From an uncultured Planctomycetaceae bacterium (GTDB lineage Bacteria > Planctomycetota > Planctomycetia > Planctomycetales > Planctomycetaceae): DNA of 64,000 nt. Position 1 is the stretch's first letter; each line of letters opens with the position of its first letter. The translations under genes and the position numbers were made by a program. Of the stretch, positions 17,797-30,099 are shown piece after piece. The notes beneath the pieces were generated by a model. That model searched no databases. It saw only the letters and a list, made by a program, of their open reading frames with translations, and was not told where the DNA came from. The stretch lies in contig CAWFGE010000013.1 of the NCBI GenBank assembly GCA_963815195.1, positions 672,001 through 736,000 on the forward strand. The letters run 5' to 3'.

Positions 17797-17817
17797 CAAG
17801 AATTGTTGTTCATCGAA

Positions 17818-19624
17818 ATGGCGGAAATAACTTCATCGTCACCCAGACCCGTGTTGATCCTGGGAGCCGGCATCAACGGATGCGCGGCGGCGCGCGAGTT
17901 GGTGCTAAACGGCGTGCCCGTGTGCCTCGTCGAACGCAGCGACATCGCCTGGGGCGCGACCTCGCGGAGTTCGCGGCTGATTCACGGCGGCCTTAGGTAT
18001 TTGGAGCACGGCGAGTTTCGGCTCGTGCGGGAATCGCTGGCCGAGCGGTCCCGCCTCCGCCGGCTCGCGCCGCAGTTCGTGCGGCCGTTTCGTTTGCACA
18101 TTCCCGTCGCCCGGCGGACCGGCGGGCTGTTCCGCTCTGCGGAAAGATTTTTTTCCGGCGGACGGTGGGGCAAAACCGAGACATGCGCCGCGCGGGCTTT
18201 GGCTCGTGCGAGTGGGGCTTTGGTTTTATGACCGGTTTGTGAGCGATCCCGACTTTCCGGATTCGGACGTCGTGCCCAGCGGTGCTCCCGACGCCCCGGT
18301 CGTGGATGCCTCGCGGTACCGCTGGTTGTGCCGCTATACCGATGCCCAAATGATCTATCCCGAACGCTTCGTGCTCTCGATGCTGTCCGACGCCCAGGCC
18401 ATCGCCGCGGAGAAGGGGCTCGAGTTTGCGGTGTGGACGTATCACGAAGTCCGCCGGGACGCCGATCGCTGGAAGGTCATCGACCGCAACACGGGCGAGG
18501 CCGTCAAAGCGCTCGAACCGGCCCTCGTGATCAACGCCACCGGGGCCTGGGGCGATTTGACGTTGGACGAACTGTCGGTTCCCAGCCCCCCGCTCTTCGG
18601 CGGCACCAAGGGAAGCCATTTTGTGACGTACCAGAAAAAGCTTTGCGAAGCCGTGGGAGACCAGGGCGTCTACGCCGAGGCCGAGGACGGTCGGCTCGTG
18701 TTCGTCCTGCCGATGGCCGGCGGCGTGATGGTCGGCACCACCGATGAACCCTTCGCAGGAAATCCCGACGCGGCGATCGCCTCCGAACACGAGTTGGCCT
18801 ACCTCATCGAAATGGTCAACGAACTCTTTCCGCAGGTTTCGCTTGCGCGGGACGATTTGGAAATGCACTTCGCCGGGATCAGGCCGCTTCCCAAGCAAGA
18901 CGTCAACTCGACCAGTGCGATTTCCCGCGATCATTCCATCCAGATCAATGAGGAACAAGGGGTTCCCATTCTGACGCTTGTGGGAGGCAAACTCACGACG
19001 GCCCGCGCGTTCGGTGAAGCCATCGCCGATCTGGTTCTGCTCCGCCTCGACGTTCCCCGCACCGCCGGGACCCAGGACCGAGTGTTTCCCGGCGGTGAAG
19101 ATTATCCAACTCCGGAAAAACTCCAAGAAACGATCGAACAACTCGCCCAGCGCTTGGGGCGGCCCGCCGGGCACATCCGGGCGATGTGGGCGATCTGCGG
19201 CACGCGGACCGGCACGATTCTCGCCTCGATTTCCTCGCCCGATCAATCTCCGATCGCGGGCACGGACCTTCCGCGGGATTTTGTGCGGTGGGTCATCCAG
19301 AACGAATGGGTCAGCAGCCTAGGCGATTTGATCGAACGCCGATTGATGCTCATCTATCGGCACAAACTCCCCCGGGAATGCCTGGACGAACTGGCCGATT
19401 TGCTGATCGAAGCCGGGCGGATGGACCCGAGCGAGCGCGAAGCCAGAATCGAGGAGACCCGCGTTCGATTGAAAACCTATTATGGAAAAGAAGTCTTTCC
19501 TTCGGACGCCAGCCGCGCAAACAGACGACGCCGCGACGGATTATCAACGTTCCACTTCGAAGTGATTCTTTTAAGCAAGATGACTCGAGGAATACATGTT
19601 GCATCATTAGCCGCAGGGCGCTAG
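17818..19624 (+). CDS. glpD: FAD-dependent glycerol-3-phosphate dehydrogenase/oxidase (frameshift near 18185)
   Basis: ILGAGINGC, ATSRSSRLIHGGLRYLE; next frame VINATGAW, KGSH, VGTTD, AGIRPL, GGKLTT. Confidence 0.85.
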
Positions 19625-19725: not shown

Positions 19726-20516
19726 ATGTCGAGGCAACCCCAGCCCGAAACCGAACTCTCGCCGCCGCTCCCGAAGCCGGGAAAAACAGTGGCCGTGATG
19801 CCGGCTTATAACGCCGCCGCGACTTGGAACGCACCGTGGCGGATATTCCGGCGGGCACTGTGGATGAAATCATCCTTGTGGACGACCGCAGCCGGGACGA
19901 CACCGTGGCGATCGCCAAGGGTTTGGGACTCACCGTCATCGAGCACGAGCAAAACCGCGGCTACGGCGGCAATCAGAAAACCTGCTACGAAGAGGCCTTG
20001 GGCCGCGGGGCGGATTACATTGTGATGATCCACCCCGATTATCAATACGACAGCCGGGTGATTCCCGTGGCGGTCGAGATTTTGCGGTTGGGGATTTGCG
20101 ACTGCGTGCTGGGGTCGCGGATCCGCACCCGGCGGGAAGCCCTGGACGGCGGAATGCCCCGCTACAAATACCTCGCCAATCGCCTGCTGACTTTTGTGGA
20201 AAACATCGCGCTCGGCCAAAACCTGGGCGACTTTCATAGCGGGTTTCGCGCCTATCGCCGGGAAGTCCTCGAGACGCTGCCTTGGCGGAGGAATTCGGAC
20301 GATTTCGTGTTCGACAGCCAATTCCTCGCGCAGCTTGTGCACTTCGGATTCAAAATCGGCGACATTCCCGTCCCGGTCCGCTACTTCGAGGAAGCCTCCA
20401 GCATCAATTTCCGCCGCAGCGTCCGCTATGGACTTGCGACTCTGGGTGTCCTTGGACGATTTTGGATGCATCGCCTCAAATTGTGGAAATCCCCCCTCTT
20501 TACGCCGCGGGAATGA
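19726..20516 (+). CDS. Family 2 glycosyltransferase, DPM1-like (frameshift near 19822)
   Basis: [11 protein letters not shown] / [41 protein letters not shown]. Confidence 0.88.
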
Positions 20517-20817: not shown

Positions 20818-21282
20818 ATGGATGCCTTGGGACGGCACTTGATGATTGAGCTTTGGGACTGCAACGCGTCCATCAACGGACCCGAAGCCGTGCGGGCGGC
20901 CATCGAGCGAGGCGTTCGCGAAATCGGGGCGACGCTGTTGAACTTGCACGTCCACGCCTTCAGTCCGCAGGGCGTGACCGGAGTGGCTTCGCTCGCCGAG
21001 TCCCATTTGGCCCTGCACAGTTGGCCGGAGCATGGCTACCTGGCGGCGGACGTGTTTACCTGCGGCGAGCATGTCGAACCGGAGGCGTTGGTGGAGGTTT
21101 TGAAAGCATGGTTTGAGCCGGGCGTTGTGGAAGTCAAAAAACTCGAGCGCGGCCGCCGACCTGCCCCTCACCCTAACCCTCTCCCCCGAGGGGAGAGGGG
21201 ACCAGAGGTTGCCCCTCACCCTAACCCTCTCTCCCGAGGGGAGAGAGGACCAGACGTTGTTGGAAAAAGGGCGAATTTGTGA
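20818..21282 (+). CDS. speD: S-adenosylmethionine decarboxylase proenzyme
   Basis: LGRHLMIELWDC, FSPQGVTG, LAESHLALHSWPEHGYLAADVFTCG (ESH pyruvoyl site). The C-terminus is extended by two repeat units. Confidence 0.93.
   Translation: MDALGRHLMIELWDCNASINGPEAVRAAIERGVREIGATLLNLHVHAFSPQGVTGVASLAESHLALHSWPEHGYLAADVFTCGEHVEPEALVEVLKAWFEPGVVEVKKLERGRRPAPHPNPLPRGERGPEVAPHPNPLSRGERGPDVVGKRANL
21162..21257. repeat. Two tandem 48-bp palindromic repeats inside the speD 3' end
   Basis: tgcccctcaccctaaccctctcccccgaggggagaggggaccagaggt followed by a near-identical copy; translated as PHPNPLPRGERGP twice. Confidence 0.9.
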
Positions 21283-23208
21283 GTTTTCAAGCCTCGTGTC
21301 CTGCCTGTGGTTCGCCGGTTCAGTTTGATGTGGCCAATTCGGTGGTCACCATCTGCCCGAGTTGCCATTCCGCCGTAGGGCGGGCGGACGGAAAACTCGA
21401 AAACCTGGGCAAAGTGGCGGATCTCGCCGAGACTGACTCGCCGTTCCAATGCGGGCTGCGGGGGAAGTTCAAAGGCGTGCCGTTTGAAATCACCGGCCGG
21501 TCGCAAATCCGCCACTCGGCGGGCGGGGTCTGGGACGAATGGTACGTCGCGTTCCGCGGCGGGCAGCGGTGGGGCTGGCTCGCGGAAGCCCAGGGCCGAT
21601 ACTATTTGACCTTCGAGCACGAGCTGCCGCCCAATCACGAAATCCCCCCGCTGTCGGAACTCGACATCGAAGACACGATCGCCATCCCCAAAATGGGCCA
21701 GATGAAAATCATCGAGATCGGCGAAGGCACGGTCGTTTCGGGCGAAGGCGAAATCCCCTGGGCCCTGAAGCCCGGCGAAGTCGTCGAGTTCGCGGACCTC
21801 TCCGGCGGCGGGCGGAAGTTCGGCACGCTCGATCAGAGCCACGGGCAGTTGTCGTTCTACGCCGGGGGCGAAGTCACGCTGCACGAGTTGGGCCTCGAGT
21901 CCGCCGCGTCTCGCGAACGGGAAGCCCGCATCGTCGCCGCCGCCCAGGTCAACTGCCCCAAGTGCGGCGGGCCTTTGGAGACTCCAAGCCCCCGATCAAA
22001 CCCTCCGCGTGGCGTGCCCGTTTTGCGGTTCGATGCTCTCCTGCGATCATGGCAATTTGAAATTCCTCCAGGCCCTCGGCAAAAAGAAAATCGAACCGGT
22101 CCTGCCGCTGGGCTCCAAAGGCGTGTTCGATCCCGAAGTCGTCCACACCGATTGGGAAGAGCCGCAGGAACTGACCGTCATCGGCTTTATGCAGCGAAAA
22201 GTGACTTACGAGGGCATCGATTACAGCTGGCACGAATACCTGCTCTACAAACCCCGGTTGCCGTTTTACTGGCTGATCGATAACGACGGCCATTGGAGCT
22301 TCGGCCAGTCGGTGCCGGCGGGCGATGTGAAGGCGGGCCCTCAGGAAGCCTATTATTCCGGGACGGGCTTCAAGATTTTTGACCGCAGCGAGCCGGTGGT
22401 GGCGTATGTGCTCGGCGAGTTTTATTGGGAAGTCAACATGGGCGAGAAGGTGAAGTCCGCCGACTACATCCACCCGCCGGACATGCTCTCCCGCGAGACG
22501 AATCAGAACCCGAGCCCCGGCCCCAACAAAAGCCCCAACGCCAAGCGCGACAAGAAAAACCGCGAGATCAACTACACCGTCAGCCGGTATGTGCCGGTCG
22601 AGGAAATCGAAAAAGCCTTCGGCCGGGACGACCTGCGGACGCCGGTGTCCGTCGCCCCCAACCAGCCGTATCCCCACAAGGACATTTACAAATACTGGGG
22701 CCTGATGTGCGCGGCGGCGTTGTTTTTGGTGCTCGTTGTGTACGGCACCAGCGAAAGGCGTTTGGTTTACGGAAACAGCCGGACCTTTTCCTTCCAGCCC
22801 GGGGCTTCCAAGGAGGTGCTCACCGAACCGTTTCAGCTCGAAGGCGGAGACAATATCGCCGTGGGCGTGAACTGCTTTCAGTGGGTCTATCTTGACGGCG
22901 AGTTCATCAACGAAAAAGGCGAAGTCCCGGCGAACGGGAAATTCGGCGTCTCGTCGGGAAAGAAGGTGTATCTGGAAGCTCTGCCCGCCGGGACCTATAA
23001 GATGCGGTTCAACACCAAGTGGAAAACGATGACCTCGCCCAGCCCGAGTTTCACCGTGGAAGTCCGCCAGGACGTGCCGCACTTCTCGCAAATGTTTTGG
23101 CTAGGGGTGGGAGTGATGGTGTTGCCCATCGGCGTAATAATTCATCACGTGACCTTCAACGCCCGCCGCTGGCAGGAAAGCGATTACAGCCCGTTTCAAA
23201 CCGAATGA
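21279..23208 (+). CDS. Tandem zinc-ribbon + DUF4178 membrane protein (frameshift near 21981)
   Basis: CPACG...CPSCH then G-x-W-D-E-W-Y...WGWLAEAQG; CPKCG...CPFCG then YSWHEYLLY...WLIDNDGHW...VLGEFYW; two TM helices near the C-terminus. GTGA overlap with speD. Confidence 0.85.
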
Positions 23209-23280
23209 CCAAATCCCAAATCCCAAATCCCAATGACCAATGACCAATTTCAGTAGTATCAAAGTCGTATCAAAAACGTA

Positions 23281-23350
23281 TGAGCCGCGCACGAAGTAAG
23301 CGGTGTTGGACTTCGGGAATCTGAAGACCGCTGACTTCGTGCGCGGCTCA
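23281..23350. repeat. REP-doublet family A, copy 1, nested in heptamer arrays
   Basis: tgagccgcgcacgaagtaagcggt...accgctgacttcgtgcgcggctca, flanked by (aatgacc/aaatccc)n and tggtcattggggttttgggg. Confidence 0.9.
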
Positions 23351-23415
23351 AGAAACCTCCAATGGTCATTGGGGTTTTGGGGCTTGGAACTTTTCCCCAA
23401 CCAGGGGCATAAAGC

Positions 23416-23607
23416 ATGTTGACGAAAATCTATATGGGTTTAGGAATCCTGGCGTTGGGATTCTATGCGTTTTCCACCTTTTTCGGGTGGGAATTTGGCA
23501 GTACGAAACTAAGTTCCTCGCCGCCCAGCAACTACACGTCGAGCGGACGCAGTTCCGGTGGCGGGGGGTTCTTCTTTGGCGGCGGCGGATTTGGAGGAGG
23601 AAAGTAA
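23416..23607 (+). CDS. 63-aa membrane-anchored Ser/Gly-rich peptide
   Basis: N-terminal hydrophobic helix; tail SSGRSSGGGGFFFGGGGFGGGK*; TAATG overlap with the DUF350 gene. Confidence 0.85.
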   Translation: MLTKIYMGLGILALGFYAFSTFFGWEFGSTKLSSSPPSNYTSSGRSSGGGGFFFGGGGFGGGK

Positions 23608-23924
23608 TGCTGGATCGACTTGCGATGGCCATTCACTCGTGGACGCTCAATCTGCCGTTGTTCGCGGCGGAGGGCGATGTTCCCGCGACGCCCCAACCGA
23701 CGGCGGACTCGCTCAGCAGAATCGCCGGGCCCCTCTTGATGGCCGTGATCTTTACGCTGGTGGGCATGGTGCTGTTCGGCCTCTCTATCTGGGTGATCGT
23801 CAAACTCGCCCCGTTCTCGGTGCAAAAAGAAATCGAGGAAGACCAGAACACGTCGCTGGGCATCATCATGGGCTCCATCATCCTGGGCATCGCTTTGATC
23901 CTCGCCGCCGCCATTCAAGGTTGA
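23607..23924 (+). CDS. DUF350-family small membrane protein
   Basis: Two TM helices separated by PFSVQKEIEEDQNTSLGI; RBS ggagg. Confidence 0.85.
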   Translation: MLDRLAMAIHSWTLNLPLFAAEGDVPATPQPTADSLSRIAGPLLMAVIFTLVGMVLFGLSIWVIVKLAPFSVQKEIEEDQNTSLGIIMGSIILGIALILAAAIQG

Positions 23925-24048
23925 AGCAGAGAGCCCAGAGCGGAGAGCCGGAAAGAACTCGCACGCGTTTTCACATCGCTCCCCCTTTGTCCGGATTTTT
24001 CCCTTTGCGGCCCCTGCGGCCTGTGTGGCCTCTGTGGCCTTTTGAAAT

Positions 24049-25637
24049 ATGATCCCGACCGACGACGAACCGGAACCGCCCGCTCCCGACGACTCCGCCG
24101 AGTGGGACCTCGCCCGATTGCACCCGAAAACCCGCCGCCGAAACTGCACACGCCGGCTTTGTTTTTGAACGTGTTCATCATTGCGATCTGCGGGCTGGTG
24201 TATGAACTCGTGGCCGGGACTTTGTCCAGTTACGTGCTGGGCGATTCCGTCACGCAGTTCTCGCTGTGCATCGGGATCTATCTCTCCGCGCTCGGCATTG
24301 GAGCCTGGCTGTCCGGCTTCATCGAAAAATCCCTCGCTAAAACTTTCATCGAAGTCGAGCTCGGCGTGGCCTTGTTGGGCGGCATCTCGGCGCCTTTGCT
24401 CTTTATCAGCTTCGCCCGCGTCGGCGGCTGGTTCTCCGTGCTCTTATACGGGCTGGTGCTCGGCATCGGCACGCTCGTCGGGTTGGAATTGCCGCTGTTG
24501 ATGCGGATCCTCAAAGAGAACCTGGACTTCAAAGAACTCGTCTCGCGCGTATTGACCTTCGATTACATCGGGGCCTTGGTCGGGTCGCTGCTGTTCCCGA
24601 TTCTGCTGTTGCCCAAGATGGGCCTGATCCGCACCTCGCTGTTATTTGGGATGATGAATGCCCTCGTCGGATTGTGGGGCACCTGGCTCTTGAAGCCGCT
24701 TTTGAGCGGACGATCCTGGGGCTTAAGGCTGCGGGCCGGTTTGACGCTCTGCCTGTTGATCGCGGGGTTCCTTTTTGCCGACCGGTTGACGACGCTTGCG
24801 GAAGAGCGGCTGTATCCGAACCCGGTCGTGTATGCGACGCAATCCCCTTACCAGCGGATCGTTGTGACCCGCGCGGGCAAGGACTTTCAGCTTTGGCTCA
24901 ACGGCAAGTTGCAATTCGACAGCCACGATGAATACCGCTACCACGAGGCCTTGGTGCATCCCGCCATGCTCGCCGCGGGCCGCCGGCACAAAGTTCTGGT
25001 CTTGGGCGGCGGCGACGGGCTGGCGCTTCGGGAGATTCTCAAATATCCCGAGGTCGAATCGGCCACGCTGGTTGATTTGGATCCGGCGATGACTTCCCTT
25101 TCGCAAAACTTCCCGCCGCTGGCCGAGCTCAATCAGCACGCCTTCGCGGATCCCCGCGTCACGGTGGTGAACGAAGATGCGATGATCTGGCTGGAAACGG
25201 TGACGGATCGGTTTGACGTGGTGATCATCGATTTCCCGGATCCCAACAACTTCGCGCTGGGCAAGCTCTACACGCGGCGGTTTTACCGGATGCTCAAAGA
25301 GCGGTTGGCTCCCGAGGGGGCGGTGGGGATTCAATCGACCTCGCCGCTGTTTGCCCGCAAGGCGTTCTGGTGCATTCAGCACACGCTGGAAGCCGGGGGC
25401 TTTGTGACGCACCCCTATCAGGTCGCGGTGCCGTCGTTCGGTTTGTGGGGCTTCGGCCTGGCGAAGCGGCACCCGTTTTCCCCGCCCAGGAGCTTGCCCG
25501 AGGGTCTGTCTTTCAAATACCTGACGCCCGAGTTGCTCTCGGCTCTGTTCGTGTTGCCTGCCGACATTGCGAGGGTGGACACCGAAGTCAACCGCCTCGA
25601 CAACCAGATCCTCGTGCGGTATTACGAACGATATTGA
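24049..25637 (+). CDS. speE: Membrane-anchored polyamine aminopropyltransferase (spermidine synthase-like); probable frameshift near 24114
   Basis: Multi-TM N-domain (CGLVYEL...GDSVTQFS...DYIGAL), then [47 protein letters not shown]. The likely start ATG 24049 (MIPTDDEPE...) is one base out of frame. Confidence 0.9.
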
Positions 25638-25727
25638 GGGAGCGGGTCCCGTCCAAAAAACCGAAATCCGAAACAATTCCAAAACCTGAATGACCGAAAC
25701 GCCCAGGGATGACGTTGGTTTGGACTC

Positions 25728-25931
25728 TACCGCGAACCGGTTACACATTAAAGCCCAGGGTCGCGCAGCGCACCCTGGGTCATCGGAATCACAAGAGCAC
25801 TTTACGCCGAAGGCGTTATACAACACTTTTGTCTAACGCCTTCGGCGTATGGTTTAACATGGAACCCGGAACCCAGGGTGGCGCGGCTGCGCCGCTGACC
25901 CTGGGCTTTGTTATATAACGTCTTCGGCGTA
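25728..25931. repeat. Composite REP-like inverted-repeat cluster
   Basis: aaagcccagggtc...accctgggt, tacgccgaaggcgtta/taacgccttcggcgta, acccagggt...gaccctgggcttt. Confidence 0.85.
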
Positions 25932-26100
25932 CAATCGTGCTACCTCACCACTCAGCACGTCGCTGCCCTCTGCCATTCGCCCACTTCATATTCAGGAATA
26001 ATCCCAGGCTGCGGAAAACTCTCCTGCACGAGGCCCTTCCGAACGATTATGATGGACTCTGTCGAGCGGAGAAAGGACCGGTTGAATTGAAGATGGACCC

Positions 26101-28320
26101 ATGACGAACGACAAAACGCAACCCATGTCCGAGGAGGAGCAGGCGCTGGCTCAACGGTGGAGCCTGGAGCCTTCGCGCCCGCCGGCCCAGATTCCGGGCT
26201 ATGTGCTGCATCGGCTGTTGGGCACGGGGGCCTTCGGCCAGGTCTGGATGGGCACCGATGAAAACACCGGCCGCAGCGTGGCGATCAAGTTTTACGCCCA
26301 CCGCGGCGGCTTGGACTGGTCGCTGCTTTCACGGGAAGTCGAGAAGCTCGCGTTTTTGTCCTCGGACCGCTATGTGGTGCAGGTCTTGGATGTCGGTTGG
26401 AACGCCGATCCTCCTTACTGCGTGATGGAATACGTCGAGCAGGGCTCGCTGGCGGATTGGCTGGAGTCCGGTGCGGACGTGTCCATCGCGGATGCCGAGC
26501 GGCTGATCCGCCAAATCGCCATCGGCCTGATGCACGCGCACGCCAAAGGGATTTTGCACTGCGATTTGAAGCCCGCGAACGTGCTGTTGGATCAGGATCG
26601 GCAACCCCGGCTCGCGGATTTCGGGCAGGCCCGTTTGTCCTACGAGCAAACGCCCTCCCTGGGGACGCTGTTTTACATGGCCCCGGAGCAAGCCGACCTC
26701 GCAGCGGTGCCCGACGTGCGTTGGGACGTGTACGCCTTGGGGGCGATCATGTTCCGCATGTTGACGGGCTATCCGCCGTATTACACGAGCGAAATGGCGG
26801 AAACGCTCGAGCACATGACGGGCCTCGAAGAACGGCTGACGAAGTACCGGGAGTTGCTCCACGAATCGCCGCGCCTGCATGTGCGAAAAGCCATTCCCGG
26901 CATCGACCGCGAATTGGCGACGATTCTGCATCGCTGCCTCGCGCTCAATCCCCATCACCGCTACGCCAGCGTGCAGGCGGTGCTTTACGATCTGGAAGAG
27001 CGGGCCAGCCGGCGGGCGAGGCGGCCCTTGGTGTGGTTGGGGCTCGTCGGTCCGTTGCTCGTGCTGCTGCTGTCTTCGATCTTCGCCGTGGATTGGATGG
27101 ATACCATCATGGACGATTCCCGCAACGAGATCGTGCGGCGGGCGCTCGAGGGCAACCGCTTCGCGGCCCGGTTGGCGGCGGGGCAGGTGGAAGACGATCT
27201 GGCCCGGCGGTTTGAATTGGTGGAAGACGAGGCCCAAAAGTCGGAACTGAGCCGGCTCGTGTCGAGCGTGGTCAAGTCGCCGGCCTGGCGGGACCGGCTG
27301 AAGCAGATCGCCACGCTGCCGGAAGGCGATCCCCTGCTGGAGACCCAGGAAAAACAGTATCAGGCCGCGGTCGCCGGTCCGCCCGATTCGCCGCCCGCGA
27401 AGCTCGAACATTGGCTGGTCGACTTGGGAAAGGCCCCGCGGTTTTCGCATTCCAACGGGAAGTTGTCCATCGCGAGTTGGCTGGTGTGCGACTCCCGCGG
27501 CGTGTGCTTGGGCCGCTGGCCCCAGAGCGATACCATCGGCCATAACTATGCGTGGCGGGCCTATTTCAACGGCGGCCCGAAAGACCTCCCGCCCGATTGG
27601 CGGCCCGCGAAGCCCGGAGATCTCAAGGTCGTCGACAAGCCGTCTCTCTCGCCGGTGTTTCTGAGCCAGGCGAGCAATCGCTGGATCGTCGGCGTTTCCA
27701 GCCCGATCCGCGAGGACGGGGAAATTCTCGGCGTGTTGACGATGACGTTCGCGGTGGGGGAGATCATCGACCTTCCCGAAGCCCAGTTTCAAATCCCGGT
27801 CCTGGTCAACAAAACCTCCGAGCAGCATCCGGGCATCATTCTGGAACATCCGCTTTACGAAAAGGACCACCACGTCGCCGGGCAGTACACGGATCCCAAA
27901 TTTCGGCTCTTGCCGGAAGATTATCCCGACACTCCGGAGCGCCGGGAGAGCTACCACGACCCCATGGCGAAAGCCCAAGACGGCCGGGACTACCAGGGCC
28001 GCTGGCTCGCGGAAATGGTTCCCGTCCGCGTCCATGCGCAGAACACCGGCTGGGTGGTCATCGTGCAGGAGGCCTATGACGATGTCATCGGCAAACCTTT
28101 CCAGAACACCCGGCGGGAATTGCTCTGGCTCGGCATTCGGTCGCTCGCGGTGGGCGTGGGCGTCTCCGCGTTCGTCTGGTTCGTGCTGATCCGCCAGGTC
28201 GTGAAGCGGCAACATCTCCAGCGGCGGCGGTTTGAGATTCTGGGCGGGACCACGTCCTCATCCGCCGGCACATGGACGTCGGGATCGGGGGCCGGCTCCA
28301 CGGAGGAACCGCCCCCATGA
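26101..28320 (+). CDS. Hanks-type Ser/Thr receptor kinase with two TM helices and a Cache-like extracytoplasmic domain
   Basis: LGTGAFGQV, VAIK, HCDLKPAN, DFG, YMAPE, DVYALG; TM; IGHNYAWRAYF...LSPVFLSQAS...VSSPI...ILGVL (Cache-like); TM; Ser/Thr/Gly tail. Confidence 0.9.
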   Translation: MTNDKTQPMSEEEQALAQRWSLEPSRPPAQIPGYVLHRLLGTGAFGQVWMGTDENTGRSVAIKFYAHRGGLDWSLLSREVEKLAFLSSDRYVVQVLDVGWNADPPYCVMEYVEQGSLADWLESGADVSIADAERLIRQIAIGLMHAHAKGILHCDLKPANVLLDQDRQPRLADFGQARLSYEQTPSLGTLFYMAPEQADLAAVPDVRWDVYALGAIMFRMLTGYPPYYTSEMAETLEHMTGLEERLTKYRELLHESPRLHVRKAIPGIDRELATILHRCLALNPHHRYASVQAVLYDLEERASRRARRPLVWLGLVGPLLVLLLSSIFAVDWMDTIMDDSRNEIVRRALEGNRFAARLAAGQVEDDLARRFELVEDEAQKSELSRLVSSVVKSPAWRDRLKQIATLPEGDPLLETQEKQYQAAVAGPPDSPPAKLEHWLVDLGKAPRFSHSNGKLSIASWLVCDSRGVCLGRWPQSDTIGHNYAWRAYFNGGPKDLPPDWRPAKPGDLKVVDKPSLSPVFLSQASNRWIVGVSSPIREDGEILGVLTMTFAVGEIIDLPEAQFQIPVLVNKTSEQHPGIILEHPLYEKDHHVAGQYTDPKFRLLPEDYPDTPERRESYHDPMAKAQDGRDYQGRWLAEMVPVRVHAQNTGWVVIVQEAYDDVIGKPFQNTRRELLWLGIRSLAVGVGVSAFVWFVLIRQVVKRQHLQRRRFEILGGTTSSSAGTWTSGSGAGSTEEPPP

Positions 28321-30099
28321 CCGACCTCATCGCCCAAGGAGCCCAACCGCACCAGCGTTGGCGGCACGAACTGCCCGTCGATCGCCCCGTGGTCTTGGGC
28401 CGTTCGATGGGACCTTGGGGCGTGCCTTGGGATTCGCACATCTCCCATCGCCACGCCGAGTTGGTCTGGAACGGGAAGACTTTGGACGTCCGTCGGATCG
28501 CCACGGCGGTCAATCCGATCTTCATCCACGGGCAGCAGACGGACCATTGCGAACTCGAAGCGGGGCGGCATTTCGTCATCGGGCACACGACGTTCACGCT
28601 CGTGGAAGAAGACGTGGAGATGGCCGAGAAGCTGTCGGAGCCTTCGCGCGAGCAATCCTTCAGCCCGCAGTATCTCCGCCGGGCGAAATATCGCCACGCC
28701 AGCGAGCGGATCGACGTGCTCAGCCGGCTGCCGCAGTTGATCACCGACGCCACCAACGAAACGACGCTGTTTTCGAGCCTGGTGAACCTGCTGTTGGCGG
28801 GCATTCCCCGCGCGGACGCCGTCGCCTTGGTCGCGGCTTCGCCCGACGAAAAGGCCGAGCAGCGGGTGCATCTTTTGCATTGGGACCGCCGGCGGTTGTT
28901 GGGCGGCCGGTTCCGGCCGAGCGAGCGGTTGATCCTCAAGTCCGCCCGCAGCCAGCAGAGCGTCCTGCACGTGTGGTCGGCTTCGGACCGCCCGTCCGAG
29001 TTCACCGCCAGCGAGGACATGGATTGGGCCTTCTCGTCGCCCGTGCCTTCGGCGAGTTGTCCGAACTGGTGCATTTATGTGGCGGGCAGTTTTGGCGAGC
29101 ACATTTCCGGGGCCGGCTTGGATTCCGAACCGGCCGACCTGCAAGACGATTTGAAATTCACGGAACTCGTCGCCTCGGTGTTGGGCTCGCTTTGGCAGCT
29201 CGAAAACCCTCGAACGCCGGAACGCCAGCTTCAGCCAATTCTTTTCGCCGGCCGTGCTCGCGGCGCTCAGCGAAACCGATCCCGAGGTCGTGCTCACCCC
29301 GCGGGAAACGGAAGTCACCGTCCTGTTCTGCGATCTGCGGGGATTCTCGAAAGCCTCCGAGGAATCCGCCAACGACCTGAAAGGCCTGTTGGACCGCGTG
29401 AGCCAGGCCTTGGGCGTTTCCACGCATCACATCCTCGAGCACGGGGGCGTGGTCGGGGATTTTCAAGGCGATGCCGTGATGGGCTTTTGGGGCTGGCCCG
29501 TCCCGCAGAAAGACCGCCTGGTCCGCGTGTGCCGCGCGGCTTTGGGCATCCGCCGGCAAATGGAAGTCGTCGCCCAGCGGGACAACCACCCACTCGCCGG
29601 CTTCCAAATGGGCGTCGGCATCGCCACCGGCCGGGCGATGGCGGGCAAGATCGGCACCGCGGACCAGGTCAAAGTCACCGTGTTCGGCCCCGTCGTCAAT
29701 CTCGCCTCCCGTTTGGAAGGCATGACGAAAATCCTCCGGGCGCCGATCCTCGTCGATGAACTCACCGCGAAACTCATCCATGAGCAAACGCAAACCGACC
29801 AGGTCCGGCTGCGGCGGATCGCCCGCGTCAAACCCTACGGCATGGAGAACGCGCTCAACGTTACCGAACTCCTGCCGCCCGAGTCCGAATACCCTGCCCT
29901 CTCGGACCAGGACATCGACTACTACGAAGCCGCGGAGGAAGCCTTCGTCTTGGGCGATTGGTCGTTGGCGTTTGCCCTGTTGGACCGCGTTCCCACCGAC
30001 GACCGGGTGAAGGATTTCCTGCTCGTCCGCATCGCCGAGTCCAACCGCCAACCGCCCCCGAACTGGACCGGCGTCATCGACCTGGCGAGCAAACGCTAA
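28317..30099 (+). CDS. FHA-GAF-class III nucleotidyl cyclase (frameshift near 29204)
   Basis: VVLGRS...DSHISHRHA (FHA); GAF-like middle; TVLFCDLRGFS, GDFQGDAVM, GVGIATG, TVFGPVVNLASRLE. ATGA overlap with the kinase. Confidence 0.88.

Follow-up and report, generated by a model that had tools for sequence, protein, structure and literature searches.

A planctomycete membrane aminopropyltransferase gene cluster with a lysine-ended peptide as candidate acceptor

Positions 20818-25637 of a 64,000-nt stretch of contig CAWFGE010000013.1 (hereafter the window), from an uncultured Planctomycetaceae bacterium, hold five genes in one orientation (Table 1). Open reading frame lists and family scans recover speD, a gene encoding a Zn ribbon and DUF4178 twice over, a small transmembrane (TM) peptide, DUF350 and a seven-TM aminopropyltransferase (APT), as an initial annotation of the same DNA had proposed, and their clustering is far beyond chance. 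That annotation took such neighbourhoods to be known from comparative genomics, and the gene set is indeed in print in the passages of Ravi 2024 that concern it (PMC11237479), as is a role other than spermidine synthesis, there and in Li 2019 as cited in a passage of PMC12803844. This copy is an unremarkable example of a module that is in print but unsolved, and it probably contains assembly errors. New here are a ribosome-binding-site control, tail carriers in the form of fusions and lipoproteins, a side-by-side count of tails, a half-MFS (major facilitator superfamily) fold and two frame breaks. We propose as a candidate activity, to which sequence and model lend about an even chance of being correct, that the enzyme aminopropylates the C-terminal lysine of the peptide tail outside the cytoplasm, giving a polyamine-capped protein end.

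Table 1. Features of the gene cluster, in window coordinates
Feature	Position	Strand	Evidence or remark
speD, pyruvoyl S-adenosylmethionine decarboxylase (AdoMetDC), class 1b type	20818..21282	+	PF02675 120.7 bits; TIGR03330 123.8 bits vs cut-off 75.65
Two 48-nt repeats in speD 3′ end	21162..21257	.	94% identical; genome-wide motif, core 15 times in genome
(Zn ribbon + DUF4178) twice, with two C-terminal TM segments, broken near 21980	21279..23208	+	PF13785 in both halves
Intergenic palindromic repeat, repetitive extragenic palindrome (REP)-like	23281..23350	.	Between DUF4178 and peptide genes; 27-nt arms, 93%; 16-nt core 227 times in genome
63-aa single-TM peptide, Gly/Ser/aromatic tail ending in Lys (codon 23602-23604), candidate acceptor	23416..23607	+	No Pfam family
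Gly codons of tail, GGAGGAGGA, likely also Shine-Dalgarno of DUF350	23593..23601	+	Sequence; codon bias
DUF350 (YjfL-type) membrane protein, single 2-TM repeat	23607..23924	+	PF03994 46.7 bits vs 26, profile 5-66 of 133
Seven-TM aminopropyltransferase PRK03612, true start ATG 24049	24049..25637	+	NF002956 647.4 bits vs cut-off 472, profile 16-516 of 522
TM1-6, half-MFS fold, intramembrane acids E21, E115, D140	24150..24689	+	VIA-align to OxlT 8hpj
Aminopropyltransferase domain, predicted extracytoplasmic	24819..25634	+	After TM7 (24714-24773); VIA-align to 1uir

The enzyme passes the PRK03612 profile NF002956 and contains both motifs initially ascribed to it, GGGDG at 25005-25019 and DFPDP at 25230-25244. 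It matches PF01564 (Spermine_synth) at 128 bits and fails the canonical SpeE profile TIGR00417 (140.3 bits against a cut-off of 249.55). Hydropathy and an AlphaFold2 model, built on 92 diverse homologues (pLDDT 96.6), place a seven-TM region fused N-terminally to the catalytic domain. With residue 1 at window position 24144, residues 214-497 align by VIA-align to the APT 1uir (Z 36.4, rmsd (root-mean-square deviation) 2.6, 277 residues), and Foldseek concurs. Residues 1-188 align to OxlT 8hpj (Z 18.7, rmsd 2.6, 178 residues), with many other MFS entries at Z 15-18, values that carry the usual caveat for helical bundles. A profile of the enzyme's own half found no second half-MFS in the genome, and each chain carries one half. 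A large protein elsewhere (C7; L172:319-3450) has a distant Spermine_synth domain and the motif GLGSG; since this motif lacks the acid, C7 is probably a methyltransferase. No tandem half-MFS was detected in it.

Positive charge alternates across the loops of the membrane region. Mean K+R over the 92 homologues is 1.9 at the N-terminal end, 0.04 in L1-2, 2.1 in L2-3, 0.3 in L3-4, 3.0 in L4-5, 0.15 in L5-6 and 3.5 in L6-7, and by the positive-inside pattern TM7 is therefore predicted to run outward, leaving the catalytic domain extracytoplasmic. The match to an MFS half agrees with this topology. Acidic residues lie within the membrane in TM1, TM4 and TM5 (E21 in 88 of 92, E115 in 87 and D140 in 92), and, if two halves pair, these three acids would suit a cationic cargo such as decarboxylated S-adenosylmethionine (dcSAM).

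Residues for dcSAM binding and catalysis hardly vary: Q237 and D345 occur in all 92 homologues, Q257, H267, D363 and D366 in 91 each, and position 291 of GGGD291G is Asp in 88 and Glu in 4. The roles of these residues in APTs are described in the relevant parts of PMC13619349 and PMC10349129, where an acid in GxG(D/E)G and the catalytic Asp of DxxDP separate dcSAM users from SAM methyltransferases. Because GGGDG has Asp, aminopropyl rather than methyl transfer is indicated (PMC10349129, in part). Such conservation bears on a reading in which the catalytic domain is cytoplasmic or a sensor, binding dcSAM or polyamine and gating either the half-MFS or a membrane complex of PspA/SPFH type, while transfer takes second place or does not occur. 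dcSAM arises in the cytoplasm and the YgiC/YjfC ligases need ATP, both of which would sit well with a domain on the inner side, and monitoring of polyamine concentration is the role proposed for such systems in a passage of Ravi 2024 (PMC11237479). We nevertheless hold this reading very improbable, given that the positive-inside pattern and MFS topology place the domain outside and that the full catalytic set has been kept.

In human SPDS, according to a passage of PMC13619349, Asp173 and Asp176 bind the two amines of putrescine; equivalents of both are retained here. The putrescine-site residues Y266, D363 and D366 are all kept, and only Tyr241 is replaced, by F432, as in 1uir and 7xif. Two basic residues, R265 (88 of 92) and K/R374 (89 of 92), are conserved and specific to this family relative to 11 canonical sequences, which represent 11 of 21 SpeE loci, the other 10 having been dropped by the extraction filter. 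These might compensate for a terminal carboxylate at the acceptor site. In canonical enzymes a Trp28 lid on the N-terminal hairpin blocks long substrates, as a passage of PMC12812037 describes. At the corresponding place our model has a helix (212-223) followed by four strands, the hairpin columns are unconserved, and a hairpin Glu present in 11 of 11 canonical enzymes is lost in this family.

The peptide gene ends in TTT, GGAGGAGGA and AAG before the stop TAA, which the ATG of DUF350 overlaps. Across 66 tails, 44 of the 49 glycines that stand two residues ahead of Lys are encoded by GGA; in the APT genes, GGA accounts for 347 of 2800 Gly codons. The GG of the tail is therefore in part a ribosome-binding site. 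This codon test rejects GGGK as a pure protein motif; of the GGGK-ended peptide described initially, the terminal Lys stands as the conserved element, whereas the GGG likely doubles as the DUF350 ribosome-binding site. In 17 loci where DUF350 starts more than 10 nt away, the tails (YHK, SHK, RGK, SGK and others) have no Shine-Dalgarno (SD)-like tetramer and retain Lys, and over the 66 tails Lys is encoded by AAA in 37 and AAG in 29. From this we infer that the residue under selection in the tail is Lys. An SD-like tetramer is likewise found in only 2 of 20 tails of a Pseudomonadota set.

Among 58 aligned peptides, all chosen as Lys-ended, Lys63 is the sole invariant column. Their last 24 residues are rich in Arg (131 Arg, 31 internal Lys), and the segment ahead of the TM helix averages 1.2 K+R against 0.1 D+E, which fits a tail facing outside. 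In the ESM Atlas the peptide finds unnamed clusters only (0.90-0.92). The proteins that carry the tail are unrelated to one another, being a short peptide, a DUF4178 fusion or a lipoprotein, and all end in Lys. In one clade, mostly Comamonadaceae (eight loci), the double DUF4178 protein carries at its C terminus, as a fusion, a TM segment and a Gly/Ser tail with the end GG(G/S)HK. Eight further loci encode proteins of 300-380 aa with a Lys-ended Ser/Arg-rich tail 5′ of DUF350, at least one of which has a lipoprotein signal; these are probably the Ctha_1186 type of Ravi 2024.

Of 301 genomes from the same phylum, 38 encode a protein above the NF002956 cut-off, as do 31 of 301 from Pseudomonadota. 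For neighbourhoods we used the best 80 of 576 confirmed loci (52-65% identity), which span Acidobacteriota, Myxococcota, Planctomycetota, Pseudomonadota, Spirochaetota and others. The accessory genes do keep company with the enzyme: within this set, 57 loci have at least 4 kb upstream, and among these DUF4178 is found in 48, DUF350 in 48, a separate peptide in 44, speD in 36 and all five genes in 35. All 63 loci that have both DUF4178 and DUF350 upstream possess a Lys-ended TM tail, which in 56 is a peptide between them and in 7 is fused to DUF4178; of 21671 background segments, 763 (3.5%) end in Lys. Such tails turn up in both halves of a quick enzyme tree. Of 30 loci drawn evenly from Pseudomonadota, 19 have DUF350; a Lys-ended tail is present in 18 of these (15 recognised by filter, 3 by eye) and in 2 further loci that give no DUF350 match. 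When no partner gene lies near the enzyme on its strand, a tail can still be found: in 5 of 5 such genomes it is next to DUF4178, elsewhere or on the opposite strand, and in 4 of 5 others it is next to DUF350. The enzyme also occurs on 133 plasmid records, 120 of them from Ralstonia and mostly megaplasmids of about 2 Mb, annotated as spermidine synthase.

A comparison for the tail comes from sister operons built around a ligase. In E. coli, yjfL (DUF350), yjfM and yjfC are adjacent, YjfM ends in HWGG, and YjfC carries the RefSeq label peptide-spermidine ligase; the part of PMC11762307 that deals with it gives its natural substrate as unknown. A homologue search with YjfM yielded near relatives only and does not enter the counts below. 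Among 31 stand-alone ligase loci, a count that leaves out 10 long bifunctional GspS loci and L127, the upstream gene has a Ser/Gly-rich tail in 28, ending in GG in 22, in Ser in 6 and in Lys in none, and DUF350 lies within about 1.5 kb in 14. The GG ends use GGC or GGT, and an SD-like tetramer in only 4 of 28 rejects the view that they are ribosome-binding-site artefacts. Since tails are Lys-ended beside the APT and Gly- or Ser-ended (28 of 31) beside the ligase, the end residue appears to track enzyme chemistry, an amine where a nucleophile is needed and a bare carboxyl where the end is ligated. As a matter of chemical inference, an aminopropyl-Lys end, Gly-NH-CH(COOH)-(CH2)4-NH-(CH2)3-NH2, would differ from Gly-spermidine by one carbon and a carboxyl. 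Some genomes hold both a TM-APT and a YgiC/YjfC-type ligase (L126 and L110 in G360; L136 in G113), so one route does not preclude the other. In the window's own genome, which is 94.6% complete, PF03738 (GSP_synth ligase) has no match.

We propose the following sequence of events. SpeD would make dcSAM, two half-MFS domains would together form a 12-helix carrier that moves dcSAM outward by means of its acids, and the predicted outward-facing seven-helix enzyme would transfer the aminopropyl group to the terminal Lys of the membrane peptide. DUF350 and DUF4178 may hold or read the tail. The product would mimic a Gly-Gly-spermidine end, the expected output of the YgiC/YjfC ligases in the sister operons, and the capped tail could serve envelope charge or stress control. 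The initial annotation had suggested an envelope system that modifies a membrane-bound acceptor; the predicted outward-facing enzyme agrees with this, and the peptide, through its terminal Lys, is our best candidate acceptor. A fuller version, in which a half-MFS homodimer exports dcSAM and capping of a C-terminal Lys is one of two convergent routes across many phyla, the other being YgiC/YjfC, with DUF350 as shared reader, is offered tentatively and is somewhat less likely than not.

Several points weigh against aminopropylation of the tail. D366 is kept, and its counterpart in human SPDS binds the far amine of putrescine (PMC13619349), which suits a free diamine and is hard to square with a terminal carboxylate. 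The ribosome-binding site accounts for part of the tail. The tail search targeted Lys ends, with typically one to five stop codons per interval, so only its presence rate is informative, and kin among the 80 loci are not independent. One of the 19 Pseudomonadota DUF350 loci (G702) has no tail, and speD accompanies the enzyme in only 36 of the 57 long-flank loci. Outward topology and dcSAM export are predictions, and the half-MFS dimer is putative, as are the activity, the adduct and acceptor binding.

The acceptor could instead be another envelope component, such as an amino-lipid, a cell-wall amine or other exported proteins, with the Lys peptide as a cationic subunit, ligand or sorting tag. 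The predicted active site is membrane-bound and outward-facing, a passage of Ravi 2024 allows that other substrates may be aminopropylated (PMC11237479), and in tails as Arg-rich as these charge alone may matter. A charge role would tolerate a terminal Arg, yet Lys ends the tail in every locus with both upstream genes and on both tree halves (in a search that sought Lys ends), and ligase operons switch to Gly or Ser ends. On balance we consider another acceptor unlikely.

The AESH sequence of SpeD preserves the E-S-H motif, at which class 1b AdoMet decarboxylases cleave themselves. This family includes neofunctionalised homologues acting on arginine or ornithine, which the TIGR03330 profile cannot tell apart from decarboxylases of SAM. 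Both overlaps reported initially, GTGA between speD and DUF4178 and TAATG between peptide and DUF350, are present in the sequence, but the former is not conserved. It exists because two inserted 48-nt repeats lengthen speD, supplying its last 40 or so codons; in the same-genus genomes G001 and G002 the SpeD proteins are shorter, speD stops earlier and the overlap is missing. A conserved coupling of speD is accordingly not supported. A second SpeD-like gene stands alone (C10; L170:1441-1950 in G000) and scores 73.1 bits with TIGR03330, below the cut-off of 75.65; presumably it could be a pyruvoyl-type arginine or ornithine decarboxylase. A similar gene lies just 3′ of the enzyme gene in G001.

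Another possibility is that the product is a free polyamine, whether spermidine or some longer or unusual compound, which the enzyme would make at the outer face of the membrane, with synthesis coupled to export. The putrescine site, intact except for Tyr241, would serve such a reaction, and the enzyme is the only GGGDG-type APT found in the genome. In addition, many loci (nine were noted individually) have, 3′ of the enzyme gene, a protein of about 550 aa with a twin-arginine-like signal. This protein, which the window's cluster lacks, probably corresponds to the flavin amine oxidase of Ravi 2024; such a flavoprotein-like gene would agree with the polyamine oxidase mentioned there in a relevant passage (PMC11237479). 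Against free polyamine synthesis, no ornithine or arginine decarboxylase is recognised in the genome among the families searched: two PF02784 matches score best as LysA and PF16653 has none, while PF01276, agmatinase and other putrescine routes were outside the search. The Lys tail would also be left unexplained. Moreover, a passage of PMC12803844, citing Li 2019, reports that bacterial membrane-APT fusions are uninvolved in spermidine or spermine synthesis. The initial annotation knew of no biochemical characterisation; at least this negative result exists. Free polyamine as the product thus seems to us quite unlikely.

Two genes of the cluster are interrupted as assembled. In the double DUF4178 gene, one extra base near 21980, within the second Zn ribbon, splits the frame, so the duplication claimed initially holds for two units but not for a single open frame. 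This break is the sole gap in a 1968-nt alignment to G001, where the gene is intact and encodes 642 aa, and falls at the same place against G002. In the enzyme leader, one base is missing near 24121, which detaches the true start, ATG 24049, in frame in 3 of 3 same-genus genomes (G001, G002 and G003); the open frame as assembled begins at TTG 24042. Programmed frameshifting at 21980 is rejected, the relatives being in frame. Also rejected is an origin in a natural two-gene split: 13 of the 80 loci do divide the protein into two Zn-ribbon and DUF4178 genes, but they divide before the second Zn ribbon and the window within it. DUF4178 has no usable ESM Atlas match, and a relationship to DUF2491 was not borne out by BLASTP (E 0.68).

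Both frame breaks are probably assembly errors. Three further one-base breaks lie within 12 kb in unrelated flanking genes, apparently near 19825 in a GT2 glycosyltransferase (19693/19824), near 18205 in a gene at 17803/18206 that we take to be glycerol-3-phosphate-dehydrogenase-like, and near 29230 in a gene for an FHA-adenylate cyclase (28272/29254). Loci split over frames recur in the genome (sulfatase paralogues 12 of 75 and 5 of 54, KAS 2 of 8, kinase 1 of 72), and the assembly looks indel-prone; it is these flanking and genome-wide breaks that make assembly error the likely cause. Decay of the cluster in this strain through real mutations would leave the same two breaks, both of which stand in the assembly, and neither site is spanned by any public contig (contigs end at 21973 and restart at 22042). 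The unrelated flanking breaks and the split sulfatase loci speak against decay, same-genus assemblies are broken at other positions, and outside the breaks residues are 86-92% identical to G001; we therefore find decay decidedly unlikely.

The cluster is flanked by the GT2 glycosyltransferase and a Ser/Thr kinase, and its immediate surroundings, which alone were examined, contain no CesT/Tir-PspA dyad, DUF4247 with DUF2617, or Band-7-2TM-SHOCT with polyamine oxidase in the operon. At 25723-25936, 3′ of the enzyme gene, are nested inverted repeats resembling a miniature inverted-repeat transposable element (MITE) or REP, with a 16-nt core present 37 times in the genome. At positions 26101-30099 the FHA-adenylate/guanylate cyclase gene comes after a gene for a membrane Ser/Thr kinase that has a Cache-like domain; by blastn this pair is not adjacent to the cluster in G001 or G002.

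Members of this common family bear the annotation spermidine synthase and are reported to make no spermidine. Our analysis narrows the acceptor question to a single residue, the terminal Lys, with a single expected mass shift of +57.058 Da, and predicts an extracytoplasmic compartment in which the available passages of earlier work had not placed the enzyme. If correct, the proposal would describe a new bacterial protein modification, explain polyamine-independent use of AdoMetDC, and tie DUF350, DUF4178 and YgiC/YjfC operons to one type of product.

Pederick 2023 is reportedly connected with the E. coli YjfC/YgiC peptide-spermidine ligase operons. The yjfKLMC and ygiBC operons (DUF2491, DUF350, DUF1190 lipoprotein, ligase), as portrayed in parts of PMC11762307 and PMC12568646, resemble this cluster in placing DUF350 and an exported Ser/Gly/Arg-tailed protein near a polyamine-transfer enzyme. 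They differ in using an ATP-grasp ligase and a tail ending in GG or Ser, whereas here the enzyme is an APT and the tail ends in Lys. The operons of Ravi 2024 are closest (PMC11237479; bioRxiv 10.1101/2020.09.24.301986): the relevant text describes seven-TM spermine synthase with DUF350 and DUF4178, AdoMetDC in some variants and ligase operons, and suggests aminopropylation of other substrates. Of the features given there, the PspA/CesT dyad, Band-7, DUF4247/DUF2617, Ctha_1186 and polyamine oxidase are missing from our cluster; conversely, that text does not name the small peptide, terminal Lys, outward topology or half-MFS. Our literature search, whose coverage stopped short of subscription journals and bioRxiv supplements, found no paper naming a terminal-Lys acceptor or the peptide, and Li 2019 may bear on it.

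Li et al. 2019 (Biochem J 476:2579), known to us through citing papers, is said to concern AdoMetDC together with fusions of membrane protein and APT. SpeD and a membrane-fused APT are thus common to those fusions and this cluster, and the citing passages name no acceptor (PMC12803844, PMC11237479). Canonical SpeE (TIGR00417; 1uir, 3o4f, 9q41) shares the catalytic fold (Z 27-36) and the dcSAM and catalytic residues. It is soluble with an N-terminal hairpin, whereas this enzyme is membrane-fused and, in the model, has a helix in its place, and R265, K/R374 and F432 differ from the 11 canonical sequences. The fungal enzyme NHMT (AN4663), by its description in part of PMC10349129, also has seven TM helices ahead of a SpdS-like domain, and methylates the N-terminal His of secreted proteins in the endoplasmic reticulum. 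NHMT has Ile in GxG(D/E)G where this enzyme has Asp, which points to dcSAM (PMC10349129, same passage). By analogy, a seven-TM, SpdS-like protein that acts on a protein terminus would be a precedent for the activity proposed here.

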